The notes beneath the pieces were generated by a model. It did no database searches. It was not told where the DNA came from and saw only the letters and a program-made list of their open reading frames with translations. A stretch of DNA of 54,348 nucleotides from Patescibacteria group bacterium (GTDB taxonomy: Bacteria > Patescibacteriota > Microgenomatia > UBA12405): NCBI GenBank assembly GCA_038062455.1, contig JBBTXE010000001.1, forward strand, positions 316,371 through 370,718, read 5' to 3'. Each line of letters begins with the position of its first letter. The first letter of the stretch is position 1. Shown here piece by piece: positions 9,590-18,834 of the stretch. A program made the position numbers and the translations under genes.

Positions 9590-10816
9590 ATGTTCCAAAA
9601 ACTTAAAAACTATCTCTGGCACCTGCCCAGAACGCTTTTTTGGCAAACTTTCTACCTTTTCCCTCAAAAGTCATTGGTGTTAATCGGAGTTACTGGAACC
9701 GACGGCAAGACCAGTACCTGCAACCTTATCCACCAAATCTTATCCAACGCCAACATCAACGTTAAATCAATCACCACCATCAACAGCCCCGGACTTCACA
9801 CCACCAGCAATTTTAGCTCTAAAACTTTCTTTCAACTGTTAAAACAATATCAAAAAGACGGAGTTACTCATGTTATCTGTGAAGCCACTTCCCACGCCCT
9901 GGACCAATTTCGATACTTTGGCTGCCATTTCACCGCCAGTGTCATCACCAATCTCTCCCATGAACACCTTGACTATCACCGAAATATGGGAAACTATTTA
10001 AAAGCTAAATCACGTCTTTTTTGTCAATCAAAATATAAAATCCTCAACGCTGACGATCCTTATTTTCCGCAGCTAAAAAAACTACTCAAAAAAAACATTT
10101 TTACCTACTCAATCAAAAATCCATCAAACTTTCAGGCCAAAAAAATAAACATTTCCCCTGAATCTGTTTCTTTCGTCCTTGATAAGCAAATATATATTTC
10201 CGATTCACCCTATAAATACCAAATATACAATCTGCTGGCTGGTATCTCTCTAACCCAAAAACTCAAAATAAATAAAAAAATAATTATTGCCTCTATCCGC
10301 CACTTTCCTGAAACCAAAGGTCGACGGGAAATTGTCAAAAACAATTTCAAAATAAATTGTATTGTCGACTTTGCCCATACCCCCAACGCCTTATTTGAAA
10401 CTTTAACCGCACTTAAAATAATTTACCCGAATGGCAAACTTATCTGCCTCTTTGGCGCCACCGGTGGTCGTGACCAAAGCAAACGTCCTTTAATGGGAAA
10501 AATAGTTTCAGAAATCGCCGACGTTGCCATTATCACCGCTGACGACACTAGAAACGAACCAATCGATTCTATCAACCAGCAAATTATTTCCGGAATTAAT
10601 CCCAAAAAAATTAAGCAAAAAAAATTTCAGTATCACAATATCTTTAACCGTCAGGATGCCTTCAACTTTGCCGTCAAAATTGCTAACCCCGGCGATACTA
10701 TCATCGCCTGCGGCAAAGGCCATGAACTAAGCATCCTTCATAGTAAAACCGAATACCCTTGGTCGGAAACCGAAGCTTTTAAAACCGCTTTTAGAAATCG
10801 GGACCAAAATGTTTAA
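9590..10816 (+). CDS. murE: MurE-family Mur ligase
   Basis: IGVTGTDGKTST, EATSHALDQ, TNLSHEHLDYH, VDFAHTPNAL, FGATGGRD, GKGHE. Start taken at ATG 9590. Confidence 0.9.
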   Translation: MFQKLKNYLWHLPRTLFWQTFYLFPQKSLVLIGVTGTDGKTSTCNLIHQILSNANINVKSITTINSPGLHTTSNFSSKTFFQLLKQYQKDGVTHVICEATSHALDQFRYFGCHFTASVITNLSHEHLDYHRNMGNYLKAKSRLFCQSKYKILNADDPYFPQLKKLLKKNIFTYSIKNPSNFQAKKINISPESVSFVLDKQIYISDSPYKYQIYNLLAGISLTQKLKINKKIIIASIRHFPETKGRREIVKNNFKINCIVDFAHTPNALFETLTALKIIYPNGKLICLFGATGGRDQSKRPLMGKIVSEIADVAIITADDTRNEPIDSINQQIISGINPKKIKQKKFQYHNIFNRQDAFNFAVKIANPGDTIIACGKGHELSILHSKTEYPWSETEAFKTAFRNRDQNV

Positions 10817-11402
10817 CTTAAAAAATAACTTCTCTGTCGAAGAAAATTACCAAAACGGCTTCCTGCCGCAACGGAATTCCCGGAGTCTTTTTTACCAACA
10901 GACTAGCTGCCGATCCAATCTATCTTTATTTAACCTAAGTTCGGAAAATCGACGAATTCTTAACAAAACCGCCGCCTTTGCCTTTGAAGTTTCGCTTCTA
11001 TCTGATTTTTCATTTTCCTTAGCTACCCAAAAAACCATCTTTAAATGGGTAAAAAAACTCAACTGGGATTTCCCCATGTCCTCAATCAAAAATATCTTTA
11101 CCAATCATATCTTCAACCGACTTTATATTTGGAAAGACTCACCGGAAAGTATTATTGCCTATTCCCTTTGTTATTTCTCAAATACTCTTTCCCATATTGC
11201 TTACGTTTTTTACAATCCTGAGTTTTCCCATACCAATCTTCCCATCCGCCTTACCCTTCAGACTATTATCGATAGTCACCAAAATAAATTAGCTTTCTGC
11301 TACCTTGGCCGCTTTGACCCCAAACCGGAAGGCGTTGGCTACTACAAAAGAAACATGCCCGGATTTGAATACTTTTCTCAAAACCGGTGGAGACAATTAT
11401 GA
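10809..11402 (+). CDS. ATE1/Bpt-like aminoacyl-tRNA-dependent transferase (divergent, short)
   Basis: N-terminal Y..GF...R...F.LSSENRRIL and C-terminal HIAYVFYNPEF...CYLG...YYKR resemble the ATE_N and ATE_C consensus (VYTFYDPD...YYYLG...YK). Recognised by eye only. Confidence 0.6.
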   Translation: MFNLKNNFSVEENYQNGFLPQRNSRSLFYQQTSCRSNLSLFNLSSENRRILNKTAAFAFEVSLLSDFSFSLATQKTIFKWVKKLNWDFPMSSIKNIFTNHIFNRLYIWKDSPESIIAYSLCYFSNTLSHIAYVFYNPEFSHTNLPIRLTLQTIIDSHQNKLAFCYLGRFDPKPEGVGYYKRNMPGFEYFSQNRWRQL

Positions 11403-12712
11403 AAATTCATATTTTAGCGATTGGTGGCACCATGACTACTCCTTTGGCCCTAGCCTTAAAAAACGATGGCCACACCGTTACCGGCAGTGATCAAAAATAT
11501 ATTTATCCTCCTTTTAGCCAAAATCTTTACCATGCCCATATACCAATTAACCCCAAACTCAATTCTTTTTCTCCTGACTTAGTTATCGTCGGTTCTGCTT
11601 TTAAAAAATTTAGCCATACTCAAACCGAATTTGAATTTTTCAAAAATAAAAAAACTCCTTATATCTCCGCCACCAAATACATTGCTGACAATTTAATAAA
11701 AAGTAATAGTATTTTAGTTGCCGGAAGCTACGGTAAAACCACCATAACTGCGGCGCTTTCTTGGATCCTGACCAAAATCGGCTTTAATCCTTCTTATTTC
11801 TTCGGCGGCCAAAGTAAAAACCGTTTCCCGTCACTTAGGTTTTCCTCATCCGATTGGTCAGTAGTCGAAGCTGACGAATCTAAAAACGGTCTCGATACTC
11901 AGGCTAAGTTTTTATACTATCCGGTAAAATATTTGATTTTAACTTCATCCCGTTGGGAACATCACGATTCCTACAAAAGTAAAACCGAAAATCAAGAAAG
12001 TTTTATCAAACTAATTAAGCGGCTTCCCCCTGATGGCCTTTTGGTTTATAACGCCCAAGATCCGTCAACCAAGTCTCTTATCAAATACGCCCAATGTAAA
12101 AGTATCGACTATTCCCTATATACCTCAAAACATCCTTTTCTTTTCGGCCAACACAATCAAAACAATCTGGCGGCCTGCGTTATCCTCTGCCTTAATCTAG
12201 GAATAAGTCCTCAAAAAACTGATTTTTATCTTCAAAAATTTAAAGGCATTAAACGCCGGCTGGAATTAATATCAACTATAAAAAATACCTATTTTTACGA
12301 CGACTTTGGCCAAAATCCGATCCGTATCGATGCCTGTCTTTCGGCACTTGCCGATAAATTTCCCAATCAAAGAATTTTGGTTATTTTAGAACCACATGCT
12401 TCTTTTCTCCAATACCCAAACTCCCTCAAAGGCCTCGGTTCGGCTCTCAAAAAAGCCTCTAAAGTTTTTTTGGGTAAAATTCAATATTCTCAAAATAAAA
12501 ATACCCGAACCTCCTTTTCTGATTATCAAAAGCTTTTAGGTGATAAACTTATCTATCTGCCCCTTTACCCCGATCTCCAAAATTCGGTTTTGTCTTCCCT
12601 TAACCCAGGCGATGTTTTAGTTCACTTTAGTTCCGGAGGTCTGTCCGGCCTAAAAACCTTCAAACAAATTATTAATAAATTCAAATATCAAGCTTTAGAA
12701 ATTAGAAATTAG
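11399..12712 (+). CDS. MurC/Mpl-family ligase, N-terminus Mpl-like
   Basis: MKIHILAIGG...GHTVTGSDQKYIYPPFS, VAGSYGKTT, VEADES, KGIKRRLE, DDFGQNP, ILEPH. Confidence 0.85.
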   Translation: MKIHILAIGGTMTTPLALALKNDGHTVTGSDQKYIYPPFSQNLYHAHIPINPKLNSFSPDLVIVGSAFKKFSHTQTEFEFFKNKKTPYISATKYIADNLIKSNSILVAGSYGKTTITAALSWILTKIGFNPSYFFGGQSKNRFPSLRFSSSDWSVVEADESKNGLDTQAKFLYYPVKYLILTSSRWEHHDSYKSKTENQESFIKLIKRLPPDGLLVYNAQDPSTKSLIKYAQCKSIDYSLYTSKHPFLFGQHNQNNLAACVILCLNLGISPQKTDFYLQKFKGIKRRLELISTIKNTYFYDDFGQNPIRIDACLSALADKFPNQRILVILEPHASFLQYPNSLKGLGSALKKASKVFLGKIQYSQNKNTRTSFSDYQKLLGDKLIYLPLYPDLQNSVLSSLNPGDVLVHFSSGGLSGLKTFKQIINKFKYQALEIRN

Positions 12713-14057: not shown

Positions 14058-15092
14058 ATGATTCATCTCTACCTAGGTCTTCTTTTGTTTTCCTTTTTTA
14101 CCACCAGCATATTAGTTGTCCCCTTTATTAACATTCTCTATCGTCTTAAATTTCAGCGGCAGCGCCAAAAAACTCTCGATTTTCAAAATCGCCGGACGCC
14201 AATTTTTGATAAGTTTCACCGGGAAAAATCAGGTACTCCCGTTGGCGGCGGGCTATTAATTATCCTGTCAGTAACGATTCTCTTTTCCTTCCTTTTCCCG
14301 ATTCTTAAATTCTCCCAAATATTTATTTCCAGTAATTTCCGGCTCAATCATGAAATTGAAGTCATCTTTTTTACCTTTATTAGTTTTGGGCTTTTAGGTC
14401 TCTACGATGATATATCCAAATTTTTTGGAATCAAAAAATCCGGTTTCTTTGGTCTTAGGCTGAAACACAAACTTCTTCTTCAACTAATTTTAGCCGCTAT
14501 TGCCTCCTCCTTAATTTTTTTCCGTTTAGGAATTAATTTTATTTATCTACCCTTCCTTGGCGCCATTAATCTAGGTCTATTTTTTATTCCCATTTCTACT
14601 GTCATTATTGCGTCTTTCACTAATTTCTTTAACATTACCGACGGTCTTGATGGCTTATCCTGCGGCATCTTAACCATTTCCCTTTTTGCTTTCTGGATCC
14701 TGGCCGGCTCTTCCTTCGACACCCCTATTTCTCTTTTTATTTCCCTCTGGATTGGGGCTCTAATCGCCTTTCTCTACTTTAACGTCTTCCCCGCCCGAAT
14801 TTGGCTGGGCGATGTCGGTTCTCTTTCTTTTGGAGCTACTTTTGCCGTAATTGCTCTGCTCTTAGGGAAAATAGTTCCCTTAATTATTGTCGGCGCTCCT
14901 TTTATCATCGAAGGGCTAAGCAGCGCCATTCAAATAGTTTCCAAAACTTATTTTAAGAAAAAAGTCTTTCCGGCCGCCCCAATCCATCTGACCCTTCAAA
15001 AAATCGGTTGGGAAGAACCTAAAATTGTTTTACGTGCCTGGCTGGCAACCATTATTCTGGCTATCTTTGGCTTATGGCTGGGTCTAAACTAG
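14058..15092 (+). CDS. mraY: Phospho-N-acetylmuramoyl-pentapeptide transferase
   Basis: KSGTPVGGG, GLYDD, NFFNITDGLDGL, GDVGS, APIHLTLQKIGWEEPKIV; multi-TM. Confidence 0.93.
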   Translation: MIHLYLGLLLFSFFTTSILVVPFINILYRLKFQRQRQKTLDFQNRRTPIFDKFHREKSGTPVGGGLLIILSVTILFSFLFPILKFSQIFISSNFRLNHEIEVIFFTFISFGLLGLYDDISKFFGIKKSGFFGLRLKHKLLLQLILAAIASSLIFFRLGINFIYLPFLGAINLGLFFIPISTVIIASFTNFFNITDGLDGLSCGILTISLFAFWILAGSSFDTPISLFISLWIGALIAFLYFNVFPARIWLGDVGSLSFGATFAVIALLLGKIVPLIIVGAPFIIEGLSSAIQIVSKTYFKKKVFPAAPIHLTLQKIGWEEPKIVLRAWLATIILAIFGLWLGLN

Positions 15093-15649
15093 ATCTTCTC
15101 TACCTTGAAACTCAAAAATACCTTGGCTTACCCTACTTTTCTAATCTAGGTCGACACCAAACCTCATCTTCAAACAACGCTGATGTCGGAAAAGGCAGTG
15201 CCAAAGAAATTGCTCTCAGAACAATTGAGATCGCGAACCTTGAAAATATTAAATTAGTTAATCTGTCCCCAATCCAAATTTACAACTTTCAAAAAAAGCA
15301 CCGTCTCGGCATCGATTGTTCCGGTCTCGTTTGTCATCTTTTAAATTTTTATTTCTCACTTTCACTGAATCCCCGAAAAACCTCTGCCAATAAATTGACT
15401 TCCTTACCTCTCTCTACCACTATCAAACTCGGCGATATTCGCACCGGGGATCTTATCCGTCAAAAAAACGGTCGCCATGTTCTCTTCGTCATCAACCGTT
15501 TAGGCGACACCGTCAGCTACACCGACAGCCGTAAAGACAGCCGTGGAGTCAAAACTGACTCCTTTTCCCTGTCAAAACCGGATATTGAAATCGGGGGAGT
15601 ATTTCGGCTTACTTCTCTTCTATCAATACCTGATATTTCCACGGATTAA
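15074..15649 (+). CDS. NlpC/P60-like cysteine hydrolase
   Basis: GLPY...GIDCSGLV (catalytic Cys) and GDLI...GRHV (catalytic His). Confidence 0.7.
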   Translation: MAGSKLDLLYLETQKYLGLPYFSNLGRHQTSSSNNADVGKGSAKEIALRTIEIANLENIKLVNLSPIQIYNFQKKHRLGIDCSGLVCHLLNFYFSLSLNPRKTSANKLTSLPLSTTIKLGDIRTGDLIRQKNGRHVLFVINRLGDTVSYTDSRKDSRGVKTDSFSLSKPDIEIGGVFRLTSLLSIPDISTD

Positions 15650-15767
15650 GCGACACCATCTCTACTTCGGTCCCACACTCGCTACATTCTAAAATATCAC
15701 CTATCATTGTTTTATCACTATTTTTTATTTCCGCCTGACAATCAGGACAAATTACTTTTCCCATCAT
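15609..15767 (-). CDS. LysW/ArgW-like amino-group carrier protein (52 aa, absent from the ORF track)
   Basis: Hand translation: MMGKVICPDCQAEIKNSDKTMIGDILECSECGTEVEMVSLNPWKYQVLIEEK*. Two CxxC knuckles and the G[D/E]xxxCxxCGxExEVxSL[D/N]P pattern of LysW. Confidence 0.8.
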   Translation of the reverse strand: MMGKVICPDCQAEIKNSDKTMIGDILECSECGTEVEMVSLNPWKYQVLIEEK

Positions 15768-15795
15768 AATATATTAAAATGTAATAGCCTATTAT

Positions 15796-16596
15796 ATGAC
15801 ACCTTTAATCAAAATTGACTCAATCTTTCTAAAAAGGGAAGATCAAAACCCCACCGGCTCCGCCAAAGACAGAGCCCTTTTGCCTCAAGTCCAAAATCTA
15901 AAATCTAAAGGTTTTTCAAAAGCTGTCATTTCCTCAACCGGTAATGCCGCCATATCCGCTCAATTTTATTGCCGAAAGTTTCAAATTCCCTTAACTATTT
16001 TTCTTCCTCCGGCCGCTTCTCCTGAAAAACTCAAATTACTTGGCAAATTCACTATCTCCCCCAGACCAATCAGTGACGCCATTAAATTTGCCAAAGCCAA
16101 TCACGCCTATCTTCTCCGGCAATCTACCGATCCGGTTGCCCTCGAGGGTTACCAACAAATCGGTCAGGAGCTCATCTTTCAACTTCCCCAAATCAGCAGC
16201 CTTTTTGTTCCGGTTGGCAGCGGCACTACTCTGTTGGGTATCTCCCAAAGCCTACCTCAACCTGTCAAAATTTTTGCTGTTCAACCGGCCTCCCATTGCC
16301 CGATATCTTCATTATTTGACAAAAATTATTCTTCTGAAACCAGTTCACTAACCGACTCTCTCGGCGCTAAATATTTACCCCTAAAAAACAATATTTTAAA
16401 GGCTATTAGAGAAAGCGGGGGCGGGGGAGTTGTAGTTCAAAATCGAAATATTGAAATTGCCCAATCTTTCCTCATAAATAACAAAATCATTACTTCATCT
16501 GAAGGCGCATTGGCCCTAGCCGGATACCGAAAAATAAAAGAGGTTTACAATGTTGGCAACTATCCGGTTATTTTATTAACAGGGGCCAAAAGATGA
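15796..16596 (+). CDS. PLP-dependent enzyme, fold type II (threonine-synthase-like)
   Basis: LKREDQNPTGSAKDR (PLP lysine), SSTGNAA, EGYQQIGQEL, VPVGSGTT, SSEGALALAG. Confidence 0.85.
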   Translation: MTPLIKIDSIFLKREDQNPTGSAKDRALLPQVQNLKSKGFSKAVISSTGNAAISAQFYCRKFQIPLTIFLPPAASPEKLKLLGKFTISPRPISDAIKFAKANHAYLLRQSTDPVALEGYQQIGQELIFQLPQISSLFVPVGSGTTLLGISQSLPQPVKIFAVQPASHCPISSLFDKNYSSETSSLTDSLGAKYLPLKNNILKAIRESGGGGVVVQNRNIEIAQSFLINNKIITSSEGALALAGYRKIKEVYNVGNYPVILLTGAKR

Positions 16597-17705
16597 ATCT
16601 AGAAAACATTCTTGCCCATTTGCCGGTAGACTTTTTCTTTTTAGTAGTTGATAAGTTTTTAGATATTAACCTGCCCCGTCTTCCCAATTTCTATCCTATT
16701 TATCACCCCCATCTTTCCGTCAAAAACAGTGGTTATCTTTTATCGCAACCCGAAACTTTTGACTTTATCCAAAAAACAATCTCTTATTCCGGGCACAAAG
16801 TGGCCATTATTCCTTTCAAACCTTCAGCTAAAATCGATTTTATTTGTAAAAAAAATAATTGGATTTGTGTCGGCAACCCTCCTTCTTTAAATCGATTTTT
16901 TGAGAACAAAATAAATTTTCCCCAAATTATTACCAACTCCCATCTTCCCCAAATTCCCCATATTTCCGGCCCCTTAAATTCTAAACTATTATCCATTGCT
17001 GAAAAAAAATTCAATCTGCCCCTTGTTATCCAAACTCACTCCGGTTGGGCCGGCAACAGCACTCATTTAATTAAAGATTTAAAAAAAATATTTCAAATAA
17101 TTCCCCATGACACTCCAACAAAAATTTCTCCCTATCTTATCGGTTACACCCTCCTTAATAATTGCTGTCTAACTAGCCGCGGACTTCTCCAAAGTCCTCC
17201 CGCTCTCCAATATACCGGCATCCCCACGTTAACTTCAAACCCCTTTTCTACCGTTGGCCGCCAATGGCCCTCCCTGGCTCCTCCTAAAATTATTGCCAAA
17301 ATCCAAAAACTCACCACCAATTTTTCCGAAACTCTAAAAAAATATAAATACCGCGGTTTCTTTGGCCTGGATTTTCTGGTTTCTAAAAATATAGTTTATC
17401 TTTTAGAGTGCAACCCCCGCCTGACTGCCTCTTTTGCCTTTTATACCGACATCGAACTAAAAAATAAGCTAAACCCGCTTTTTTATTTTCACCTATTAGA
17501 GTTTTGCGCCCCGGATCAAATCAAAGATCTGACAAACGAAAACCGTTTTGACAACAAAAATATTATTGGCTCGGAAATTACCCTAAAAAACAAGCTCTCT
17601 GTAACCATTAATAAATATCACGATTACAAAATATTTTGCCATCATCTAAATCCGCAGCATATTGATCTGTCAATTTTAAAAAATCTCCAGAATGAAAAAA
17701 ACTAA
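16593..17705 (+). CDS. ATP-grasp ligase
   Basis: FENKINF, PLVIQTHSGWAGNST loop, YRGFFGLDFLV...YLLECNPRLTAS (ExN motif). ATGA overlap with the PLP gene. Confidence 0.85.
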   Translation: MNLENILAHLPVDFFFLVVDKFLDINLPRLPNFYPIYHPHLSVKNSGYLLSQPETFDFIQKTISYSGHKVAIIPFKPSAKIDFICKKNNWICVGNPPSLNRFFENKINFPQIITNSHLPQIPHISGPLNSKLLSIAEKKFNLPLVIQTHSGWAGNSTHLIKDLKKIFQIIPHDTPTKISPYLIGYTLLNNCCLTSRGLLQSPPALQYTGIPTLTSNPFSTVGRQWPSLAPPKIIAKIQKLTTNFSETLKKYKYRGFFGLDFLVSKNIVYLLECNPRLTASFAFYTDIELKNKLNPLFYFHLLEFCAPDQIKDLTNENRFDNKNIIGSEITLKNKLSVTINKYHDYKIFCHHLNPQHIDLSILKNLQNEKN

Positions 17706-18834
17706 GTTTCACTCCCCGCTTTTAATCTACATCTTCAGTCTGGTGACTATTGGTTTTTTATTTATCTCAGTATCCTCGCTTTTTGAGGCCCAAAGCAGTC
17801 AGGGTGATCCTTTTTTCTTTCTTCGAAAACAGGCCGTCTGGATTGGCAGTGGCTTTCTCCTGTTGTTAATTTCTTCGGCGTTTAATCTCGAATTTATTCG
17901 TAAATATTCTTTCTACCTCTATCTTTTTTCGATTGCCCTATTGGTTGCCGTTCTTATCCCCGGGTTAGGAGTAAAGGTTCTTGGCGCCAGACGCTGGTTT
18001 GATCTTGGGCCCATAAATATTCAGCCTTCGGAAATTTTTAAACTAGTCTCCGTTATTTTTTTCTCAGCCCTTTTTGCCGACCCGAATCAATCAACTTTTA
18101 AAAACCTCTTTTTCTTCCTCATCCCCGCCTTTGCCTTAATCGTCTTCGAACCAAACCTAAGTACCGCTCTTCTCTGTGCCGCTATTGTTTTTTCTATCTA
18201 TTACCTATCCGGTGGTCCCAACCTTCCTCTTTTTACCACTTTTCTCATTTTCATCGCTCTGGGAATTTTCCTGGTAGTTTCTTCTCCCTACCGTTTAGCC
18301 AGATTTAAAACTCTCTTAAATCAGGAAGGAAACCCTGACCAAAACTATCATAGTCAGCAAATAATAATTTCTCTGGCCTCCGGCGGCTGGTCAGGGAAGG
18401 GAATTGCCAACTCTGATCAAAAATATAGATTTTTACCTAAAATCAGCACTGATTCTATTTTAGCCATTATCGGTGAAGAAACTGGATTTATCGGATTAAG
18501 TGGTCTTTTATATCTATTCGTCTCTCTCGTTAATTATCTTTTCAAACTATCCAAACTCGTCAAGGAGCCTTTTGAAAAACTATTAGTCTCCGGTCTGGCC
18601 TGCTGGCTGTCATATCAGGCATTAATTAATTTTTCGGCCATTGTTTCCCTAATCCCTTTAACCGGAATTCCTTTCCCCTTTATCTCCTACGGCGGTTCCT
18701 CTCTTCTGACTCTTTTTATTGCCACCGGACTGGTTAGAAACATAGAAAAGCGACATCTTCCCTTGCTATACTCTCTTAATGCCAAGATCAAAAAAAATCG
18801 TCATCACCGGCACTCACCTCACTCCCGCCCTTGA
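17692..18834 (+). CDS. ftsW: SEDS protein FtsW
   Basis: GARRWFDLG, QPSEIFK, EPNLST, SGGWSGKG, TDSILAIIGEE, TGIPFPFISYGGSS; adjacent to murG. Confidence 0.9.
   Translation: MKKTKFHSPLLIYIFSLVTIGFLFISVSSLFEAQSSQGDPFFFLRKQAVWIGSGFLLLLISSAFNLEFIRKYSFYLYLFSIALLVAVLIPGLGVKVLGARRWFDLGPINIQPSEIFKLVSVIFFSALFADPNQSTFKNLFFFLIPAFALIVFEPNLSTALLCAAIVFSIYYLSGGPNLPLFTTFLIFIALGIFLVVSSPYRLARFKTLLNQEGNPDQNYHSQQIIISLASGGWSGKGIANSDQKYRFLPKISTDSILAIIGEETGFIGLSGLLYLFVSLVNYLFKLSKLVKEPFEKLLVSGLACWLSYQALINFSAIVSLIPLTGIPFPFISYGGSSLLTLFIATGLVRNIEKRHLPLLYSLNAKIKKNRHHRHSPHSRP
18764..18772 (+). promoter_or_regulatory. Extended -10 promoter (TGCTATACT) for murG
   Basis: Ends 6 nt before ATG 18779, implying a leaderless transcript. 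Confidence 0.45.

Follow-up and report, generated by a model that had tools for sequence, protein, structure and literature searches.

We have analysed a 54,348-nucleotide stretch of the genome of a Patescibacteria group bacterium (GenBank assembly GCA_038062455.1, contig JBBTXE010000001.1, positions 316,371 to 370,718, hereafter the window) and in particular a gene on its minus strand (15609..15767) for a 52-residue protein. The protein has the zinc-ribbon fold of LysW, one of the amino-group carrier proteins (AmCPs), and ends in lysine. Together with its relatives it keeps that lysine without exception, has a fixed set of partner genes, is physically linked to MurD in many lineages and is absent from the surveyed genomes that encode the glutamate racemase MurI. 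Very likely these proteins form a distinct, K-tailed subclass of carriers within a cell-wall gene module, and the subclass probably has its place in a route to cell-wall D-glutamate that has yet to be described. The reading that we prefer, with a probability of about 0.5, is that the protein carries glutamate for D-glutamate supply: L-glutamate would be placed on the ɛ-amine of the terminal lysine, epimerised by a pyridoxal phosphate (PLP) enzyme and released by an NlpC/P60 peptidase. Searches of the full-text literature turned up no account of a LysW-like protein with a K tail, nor of its module.

Translation of the open reading frame (ORF) gives MMGKVICPDCQAEIKNSDKTMIGDILECSECGTEVEMVSLNPWKYQVLIEEK, followed by a TAA stop at 15611..15609 of the minus strand. 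The first-pass annotation of this DNA had remarked on the terminus QVLIEEK in place of EDWGE, and the translation bears this out; the EDWGE motif is absent. The interval 15500-15900 is identical in contigs from four sequencing runs of three studies, so the stop codon is real and a sequencing error at this point is ruled out. The gene is single-copy in the genome. Pfam family PF21344 (Zn_ribbon_LysW) matches the protein with 47.5 bits (cut-off 27, E 1.4e-12), whereas the score against the LysW equivalog TIGR01206 is 35.9 bits and under the cut-off of 53.2, and that against NF041070 is 30.5 with a cut-off of 75.

A profile of the homologues matches the LysW structures of Thermus thermophilus (PDB code 3WWL) and Thermococcus kodakarensis (5K2M). 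The AlphaFold2 (AF2) model has a predicted local distance difference test score (pLDDT) of 86, and its six best PDB matches with Foldseek, 3WWL, 3WWN, 5EIO, 5K2M and 3VPB among them, are all LysW chains with template modelling (TM) scores of 0.65-0.73. Only residues 49-52 (IEEK) are loose in the model, with a pLDDT of about 66. Two CxxC knuckles, encoded within 15675..15749 of the minus strand, supply the zinc-binding residues Cys7, Cys10, Cys28 and Cys31, which align with the cysteine ligands of the T. thermophilus and T. kodakarensis proteins. In an alignment of the carrier homologues Cys28 and Cys31 are invariant, and Cys7 and Cys10 are kept in at least 90% of sequences. Several databases name the protein ‘lysine biosynthesis protein LysW’. 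That name should not be used, since the protein has neither the terminal glutamate of EDWGE nor a LysX-type partner and falls short of the curated score.

The tail residues Glu50, Glu51 and Lys52 are encoded at 15612..15620 of the minus strand. We compared 79 complete orthologous ORFs from 80 species-level genomes, almost all of Candidatus Shapirobacteria. The ending is EEK in 75, EQK in two and ETK in two, always with the stop codon directly after, so that Glu50 and Lys52 are invariant and position 51 is Glu, Gln or Thr. The codons used are GAA or GAG for Glu50 (41 and 38), GAA or GAG for Glu51 (38 and 37) and AAA or AAG for Lys52 (41 and 38); synonymous codons are freely exchanged while the residues stay fixed. 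All 60 database homologues, with 58-88% identity, end in (I/V)EEK, and among them the whole 52-residue protein, and not only its tail, is strongly conserved. The first-pass annotation had proposed such a comparison of C-termini and would have taken an unconserved terminus as a sign of a decayed gene or a plain zinc ribbon. The opposite was found, the tail being the best conserved part. One further orthologue (locus L084, 5001-5240) reads ELVEE and then, with neither lysine nor stop, continues into nucleotidyltransferase-like sequence at a contig end, for which a rearrangement or a chimera of the contig end is the probable cause.

We searched more widely, with a profile against 1.8 billion representatives and once more for homologues, and met an EEK ending in 41 of the best 150 matches of one set and in 65 of the 105 matches of the other, but the canonical WGE ending in only eight of the best 150 and 21 of the 105. 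The divergent EEK-ending tails are typically (L/I/V)EEEK or FEEEEK. The K-terminal tail thus marks a clade of LysW-like proteins that is large and has diverged much further. Homologues linked to the module in further Patescibacteria and in the candidate division CSSED10-310 also end in NEEK, DEEK, DEGK, YVQK, LVEK, MIEK or MIQK. Over all these proteins and the orthologues above, the residue before the lysine can be Gln, Thr or Gly, that at position -2 Val, Ile, Asp or Glu, and the terminal lysine is the sole universal residue of the tail. This variation disfavours an internal glutamate as the acceptor, one of three sites that had been put forward at first. The terminal lysine is favoured; of its two candidate groups the gene context leans to the ɛ-amine, and the α-carboxylate is less favoured. 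The idea of a distinct subclass with a tail chemistry of its own is well supported by the conservation of the lysine and by the partner genes, which are not LysX, LysZ, LysY, LysJ or LysK, although the chemistry itself can only be proposed.

Three observations concern the range of LysW-like proteins. In one module-linked protein (locus L129, 3913-4083, minus strand) all four cysteines are lost and the C-terminus, ...DPFELDYLLVEK (...DYLLVEK), is kept, so the tail is evidently under tighter constraint than the metal site. Many LysW-like matches are proteins of 120-180 residues with two copies of the zinc ribbon and long basic (Lys/Arg-rich) or acidic tails of neither the EDWGE nor the K type. 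A scan with a generic LysW pattern recovered mostly canonical EDWGE proteins and only five K-tailed ones.

The carrier gene adjoins a gene for a PLP enzyme in every locus examined. In the window this gene (15796..16596, plus strand) encodes a 266-residue, ThrC-like enzyme of fold type II, which we propose as the epimerase of the tethered substrate. It matches PF00291 (PALP) with 148 bits, and every NCBIfam match is far under its cut-off. The enzyme holds the motifs NPTGSAKDR, with the PLP lysine, and SSTGN; S(S/T)GN is kept in 104 of 105 orthologues. The following gene (16593..17705, plus strand) encodes an ATP-grasp ligase of 370 residues, the proposed loading enzyme, which belongs to a distinct family. 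PF02655 is the sole family match, at 25.6 bits, and a PDB sequence search gave no meaningful match. The AF2 model (pLDDT 94) is closest in fold to biotin carboxylase, PurK, PurT and PurD (TM scores of approximately 0.6) and not to LysX or RimK, and the GSWGR motif is absent from the sequence. Loading of the LysX type by this neighbour is ruled out because the ligase lies outside the RimK/LysX family. The proposed unloading enzyme is an NlpC/P60-like cysteine peptidase (15074..15649, plus strand), which shows no evident signal peptide and is taken to be cytoplasmic. Its match to PF00877 is weak, at 21.4 bits; the catalytic (D/E)CS(G/A) motif is kept in 101 of 101 orthologues. Genes of the LysZ, LysY, LysJ or LysK type were found neither in the neighbourhood within the window nor in some 130 related loci, no genome-wide search having been made.

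The module sits in the division and cell wall (dcw) cluster between mraY (14058..15092, plus strand) and ftsW (17692..18834, plus strand), ORFs whose counterparts in syntenic loci match PF00953 and PF01098, and there it fills the slot of murD in the usual dcw order. The full order in the window is ftsI, a MurE-like ligase, an ATE-like transferase, a MurC/Mpl-like ligase, murA, mraY, the NlpC/P60-like gene, the carrier on the opposite strand, the PLP enzyme, the ATP-grasp, ftsW, murG, ftsA and ftsZ. The block of mraY, P60, carrier, PALP, ATP-grasp and ftsW recurs, as far as the contigs reach, in 80 of 80 species loci of the Shapirobacteria type, and also in metagenome contigs.

The carrier and NlpC/P60 genes are convergent and overlap by 41 nucleotides at their 3′ ends (15609-15649). 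The carrier start lies 28 nucleotides from the divergent PLP gene, so that its promoter must lie within that gene, an arrangement that may permit antisense regulation. In all loci of the candidate phyla radiation (CPR) the carrier is antisense to the whole dcw operon; in CSSED10-310 it is the head of a co-directional operon.

Beyond Shapirobacteria the partnership holds. Divergent K-tailed carriers are always accompanied by a PLP enzyme and an ATP-grasp homologous to those of the window, usually by NlpC/P60 and, in many lineages, by MurD. The ATP-grasps of the modules in CSSED10-310 and in other CPR bacteria are 29-34% identical to that of the window, with E values of 2e-25 and 2e-43. In CSSED10-310, with genomes of 2.8-5.1 Mb, the operon runs carrier, a D-glutamate-cyclase-like gene (PF14336), NlpC/P60, MurD, PALP and ATP-grasp; the MurD proteins score 243 and 221 bits against TIGR01087, for which the cut-off is 212. 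Natural fusions join the D-glutamate-cyclase-like (GLUCM-like) domain to P60 in one locus and P60 to MurD in another. Linkage to MurD, by which a D-glutamate-supply system would be recognised, was thus found in CSSED10-310 and many CPR loci and not in the window genome, which is MurD-less.

Inspection of 40 regions around ATP-grasp matches in 301 Patescibacteria genomes revealed two architectures. The first is mraY, P60, murD, carrier, PALP, ATP-grasp and ftsW. In the second, that of the window, murD is missing and ATE-like and MurC-like genes are present instead. The pair, an ATE_C-like gene (aminoacyl-tRNA transferase-like) followed by one for a MurC/Mpl-like ligase, occupies 10809-12712 of the window and occurs at 13 other loci; it always accompanies murD-less modules and is absent where murD is present, so that murD and the pair look like alternatives. 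The module works alongside MurD and is ruled out as its general replacement, since many lineages have MurD within the module or fused to the peptidase, but such a replacement may still apply to the lineage of the window, which lacks MurD. Ten of the loci hold a solitary ATP-grasp paralogue that has neither a PLP enzyme nor a carrier nor P60 in its vicinity. A dcw cluster typical of Shapirobacteria was also met in dozens of third-party annotation (TPA) assemblies under the title ‘uncultured Gammaproteobacteria bacterium’, a label that is evidently wrong.

The module and glutamate racemase exclude each other. MurI, called by TIGR00067 over its cut-off, occurs in none of 26 genomes with a verified module as compared with 95 of the other 275 Patescibacteria (Fisher p 3.7e-5). 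Another 12 module genomes likewise have no MurI, five of which are non-CPR genomes of 2.8-5.1 Mb, giving none in 38. In one family the sole member without the module has MurI. Apparent co-occurrence in three genomes was discounted, as each holds only a solitary ATP-grasp paralogue and these are not counted as modules. The genome of the window is 665 kb in size and 86% complete. Searches of it found no MurD above cut-off, no member of the Asp/Glu racemase family, no alanine racemase and no class-IV aminotransferase. It does hold Ddl and three Mur ligases; a MurF-like ligase lies on contig C5. With neither alanine racemase nor a class-IV aminotransferase found, D-alanine too has no evident source in this genome.

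What might the module do? The substrate, the atom of attachment and the order of the steps are what we infer from the context described. Most likely the module stands in for glutamate racemase and gives the D-glutamate for position 2 of the stem peptide; on balance we lean towards D-glutamate supply as its function. This link to peptidoglycan goes beyond anything the first-pass annotation had suggested. We are more tentative about a γ-glutamyl tether on the lysine ɛ-amine, although several considerations point that way. The lysine is proposed as the working group because it is the only universal residue. The ATP-grasp resembles biotin carboxylase, PurK, PurT and PurD, which pass a small activated acid to an amine on a larger substrate, and this argues for an amine acceptor. 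A PLP enzyme of fold type II needs a free α-amine, which attachment in the style of LysW would block, and a tether through the side-chain carboxyl is favoured for that reason: an acidic amino acid so joined to the lysine ɛ-amine has both α groups free. The NlpC/P60 family, made up of γ-D-glutamyl-diamino-acid peptidases, suits a tether of this kind as well.

In the sequence of events that we envisage, the ATP-grasp would activate the γ-carboxyl of L-glutamate and couple it to the ɛ-amine of the terminal lysine, a mirror image of LysW chemistry. The PLP enzyme, using the α-amine left free by the tether, would then invert Cα. Lastly the NlpC/P60 peptidase would let go only the D-form, either as free D-glutamate for MurD or after MurD had used the tethered residue. 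In lineages that lack MurD, including that of the window, tethered D-glutamate may pass directly into a non-canonical, possibly tRNA-dependent, assembly of the stem peptide. Taken as a whole these elements might describe a LysW fold turned carboxyl-group carrier in an ATP-driven, protein-templated deracemase, with a new family of ATP-grasp to load it, a PLP enzyme derived from ThrC to invert the residue and an NlpC/P60 amidase specific for the D-form to release it. It would constitute a third route to D-glutamate, after MurI/Dat and MurD2/MurL, in use by many lineages of the CPR and in at least one phylum besides. We put this joint interpretation forward with some reserve.

A number of points weigh against the scheme. 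The known members of the NlpC/P60 family cleave γ-D-glutamate bonded to the α-amine of the diamino acid, not to an ɛ-amine. The PLP enzyme is ThrC-like by sequence rather than racemase-like, and epimerase activity is an assumption. The flexible tail of the carrier as modelled is about four residues, much shorter than that of LysW, which makes a swinging-arm role less obvious. In the lineage of the window MurD is absent and D-glutamate has no evident user, with the caveat that a genome 86% complete limits calls of absence. With respect to the exclusion of MurI, the module genomes span only about 11 families, so that their independence is overstated in the Fisher test. Neither MurI nor the module is present in over half of the Patescibacteria, making absence of MurI not specific. 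The sequencing runs that hold the locus are of DNA only, with no RNA run among them.

Several other explanations should be considered. The position of the gene, antisense in a long co-directional operon and overlapping its neighbour by 41 nucleotides, and a score under the TIGR01206 cut-off might suggest a decayed LysW gene or a chance ORF, but conservation, selection and synteny refute this. The gene keeps its position in 80 of 80 species-level loci together with its invariant tail, the ratio of nonsynonymous to synonymous substitution rates (dN/dS) is approximately 0.12 over the last 33 codons with free synonymous turnover, the family is broad, as the counts of EEK endings (65 among 105 homologues, 41 among the best 150) indicate, and four assemblies are identical in sequence. 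Greater consideration is due to a carrier that retains the polarity of LysW, in which the α-amino group of a substrate would be held by a tail carboxylate, be it the α-carboxylate of the lysine in the manner of RimK or the γ-carboxyl of Glu50, with the lysine there for recognition. LysW itself, to which the protein is homologous, holds the substrate amine on a tail carboxylate (PMC10433800), most of the tails are acidic, Glu50 is invariant within Shapirobacteria and an α-carboxylate is always there whatever the side chains. We nevertheless consider this unlikely. Beyond Shapirobacteria the acidic positions vary (YVQK, LVEK, DEGK) and the lysine alone is universal; an N-acylated substrate would be unable to form an external aldimine, leaving the ever-present PLP partner idle; the ATP-grasp falls outside the RimK/LysX clade and lacks GSWGR; and the RimK-family ligases of this genome lie apart from the carrier gene and reach about 105 where LysX has its cut-off at 275.6. 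These ligases, two α-L-glutamate ligases of 300 and 332 residues, lie with a multi-pass membrane protein at 514-4755 of contig C3, in a cluster that also encodes an α-L-glutamate-ligase-like protein of 480 residues with a C-terminal extension (TIGR02291, 248 bits).

It is also improbable, in our view, that the protein has a non-covalent role, as a structural or regulatory subunit whose tail docks in the PLP enzyme, the ATP-grasp or MurD to activate or gate it. A free tail as short as that in the AF2 model, conservation that covers all 52 residues and an antisense placement within the CPR operon that could suit regulation are in keeping with such a role. Yet all characterised proteins of LysW fold are covalent carriers (PMC10433800, and the PDB matches given above), a last residue that stays the same from lineage to lineage, with the stop next to it, is typical of a chemical handle, the variant that has lost its zinc site retains the tail, and the ligase and peptidase that ever co-occur with the carrier make a natural pair for loading and unloading. 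A role for the lysine ɛ-amine as nucleophile in a PLP-dependent β- or γ-replacement, as in SbnA or CysM, has the affinities of the PLP enzyme in its favour, since the closest families, threonine synthase and cysteine synthase, do replacement chemistry. The product would then be some other building block of the wall, for example a diamino-dicarboxylic acid, and not D-glutamate. We find this harder still to accept, because it is to MurD, the D-glutamate ligase, and to a D-glutamate-cyclase-like domain that the genes are repeatedly linked, rather than to MurE, the exclusion pattern concerns MurI, and release of the product would use up the lysine of the carrier itself.

Peptidoglycan precursors are made by a pathway familiar from textbooks, which is among the major targets of antibiotics, and the D-glutamate at their position 2 is considered universal. 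If the reading as a carrier for D-glutamate supply is correct, then a sizeable part of the uncultivated bacteria obtains D-glutamate by an undescribed carrier-protein chemistry, the lack of glutamate racemase in these genomes is explained and the AmCP concept is widened to include a carrier of opposite polarity. The module is compact, four or five genes with a 6-kDa carrier, and amenable to direct test in Escherichia coli and by mass spectrometry.

Comparisons with known systems inform on the proposed chemistry. A small protein that offers its C-terminus to a cysteine-synthase-like or ThrC-like PLP enzyme of fold type II, with a dedicated peptidase to release the product, is known in the CysO-CysM system of Mycobacterium and in related small carriers; CysO differs from the carrier in its ubiquitin-like fold, C-terminal thiocarboxylate and sulfur-transfer chemistry. 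The loading step has a precedent in the D-aspartate ligase Aslfm of Enterococcus faecium, an ATP-grasp that reportedly couples an acidic side-chain carboxyl to a lysine ɛ-amine in a peptidoglycan precursor. The acceptor there is Lys3 of UDP-MurNAc-pentapeptide in a permanent cross-bridge, whereas we propose a transient tether on a protein tail. RimK, acting on ribosomal protein S6, illustrates an ATP-grasp that works on the extreme C-terminus of a small, acidic-tailed protein, as would be the case here. RimK adds glutamate to a Glu-Glu end, however, and the ATP-grasp of the module is outside its family, the two RimK-family genes of the genome being on another contig.

In the MurD2/MurL route of Xanthomonas and some actinobacteria L-glutamate is first ligated at the expense of ATP and epimerised only once tethered, in a one-way conversion from L to D (PMC8788868). 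The logic of tethering before epimerisation is shared with the module as we propose it. The tether in that route is UDP-MurNAc-L-Ala and MurL is a cofactor-independent enzyme that uses ATP, in contrast to a protein tether and a putative PLP-dependent epimerase, and the two systems have no sequence relationship.

The closest relatives are the LysW/ArgW AmCPs of Thermus, Sulfolobus, Thermococcus, haloarchaea, Streptomyces and Serratia. They share with the carrier a fold of about 50 residues with a four-cysteine zinc ribbon, and all are small and acidic, with genes for an ATP-grasp ligase and a PLP enzyme close to their own. In LysW and ArgW the γ-carboxyl of the terminal glutamate of EDWGE binds the substrate amine, and the GSWGR motif of LysX/ArgX, members of the RimK family, recognises EDWGE (PMC10433800). 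The carrier departs from this pattern in several respects. LysW ends in the glutamate of EDWGE with some 12 residues free, the carrier in lysine with about four; the ligase that partners LysW reads EDWGE through GSWGR, and that of the carrier resembles biotin carboxylase and PurT with no such motif. The other partners of LysW are LysZ, LysY, LysJ and LysK in the context of lysine and arginine biosynthesis; those of the carrier are a ThrC-like PLP enzyme, NlpC/P60 and MurD in the context of the dcw cluster. The polarity would be reversed, an amine of the carrier holding the carboxyl group of the substrate.

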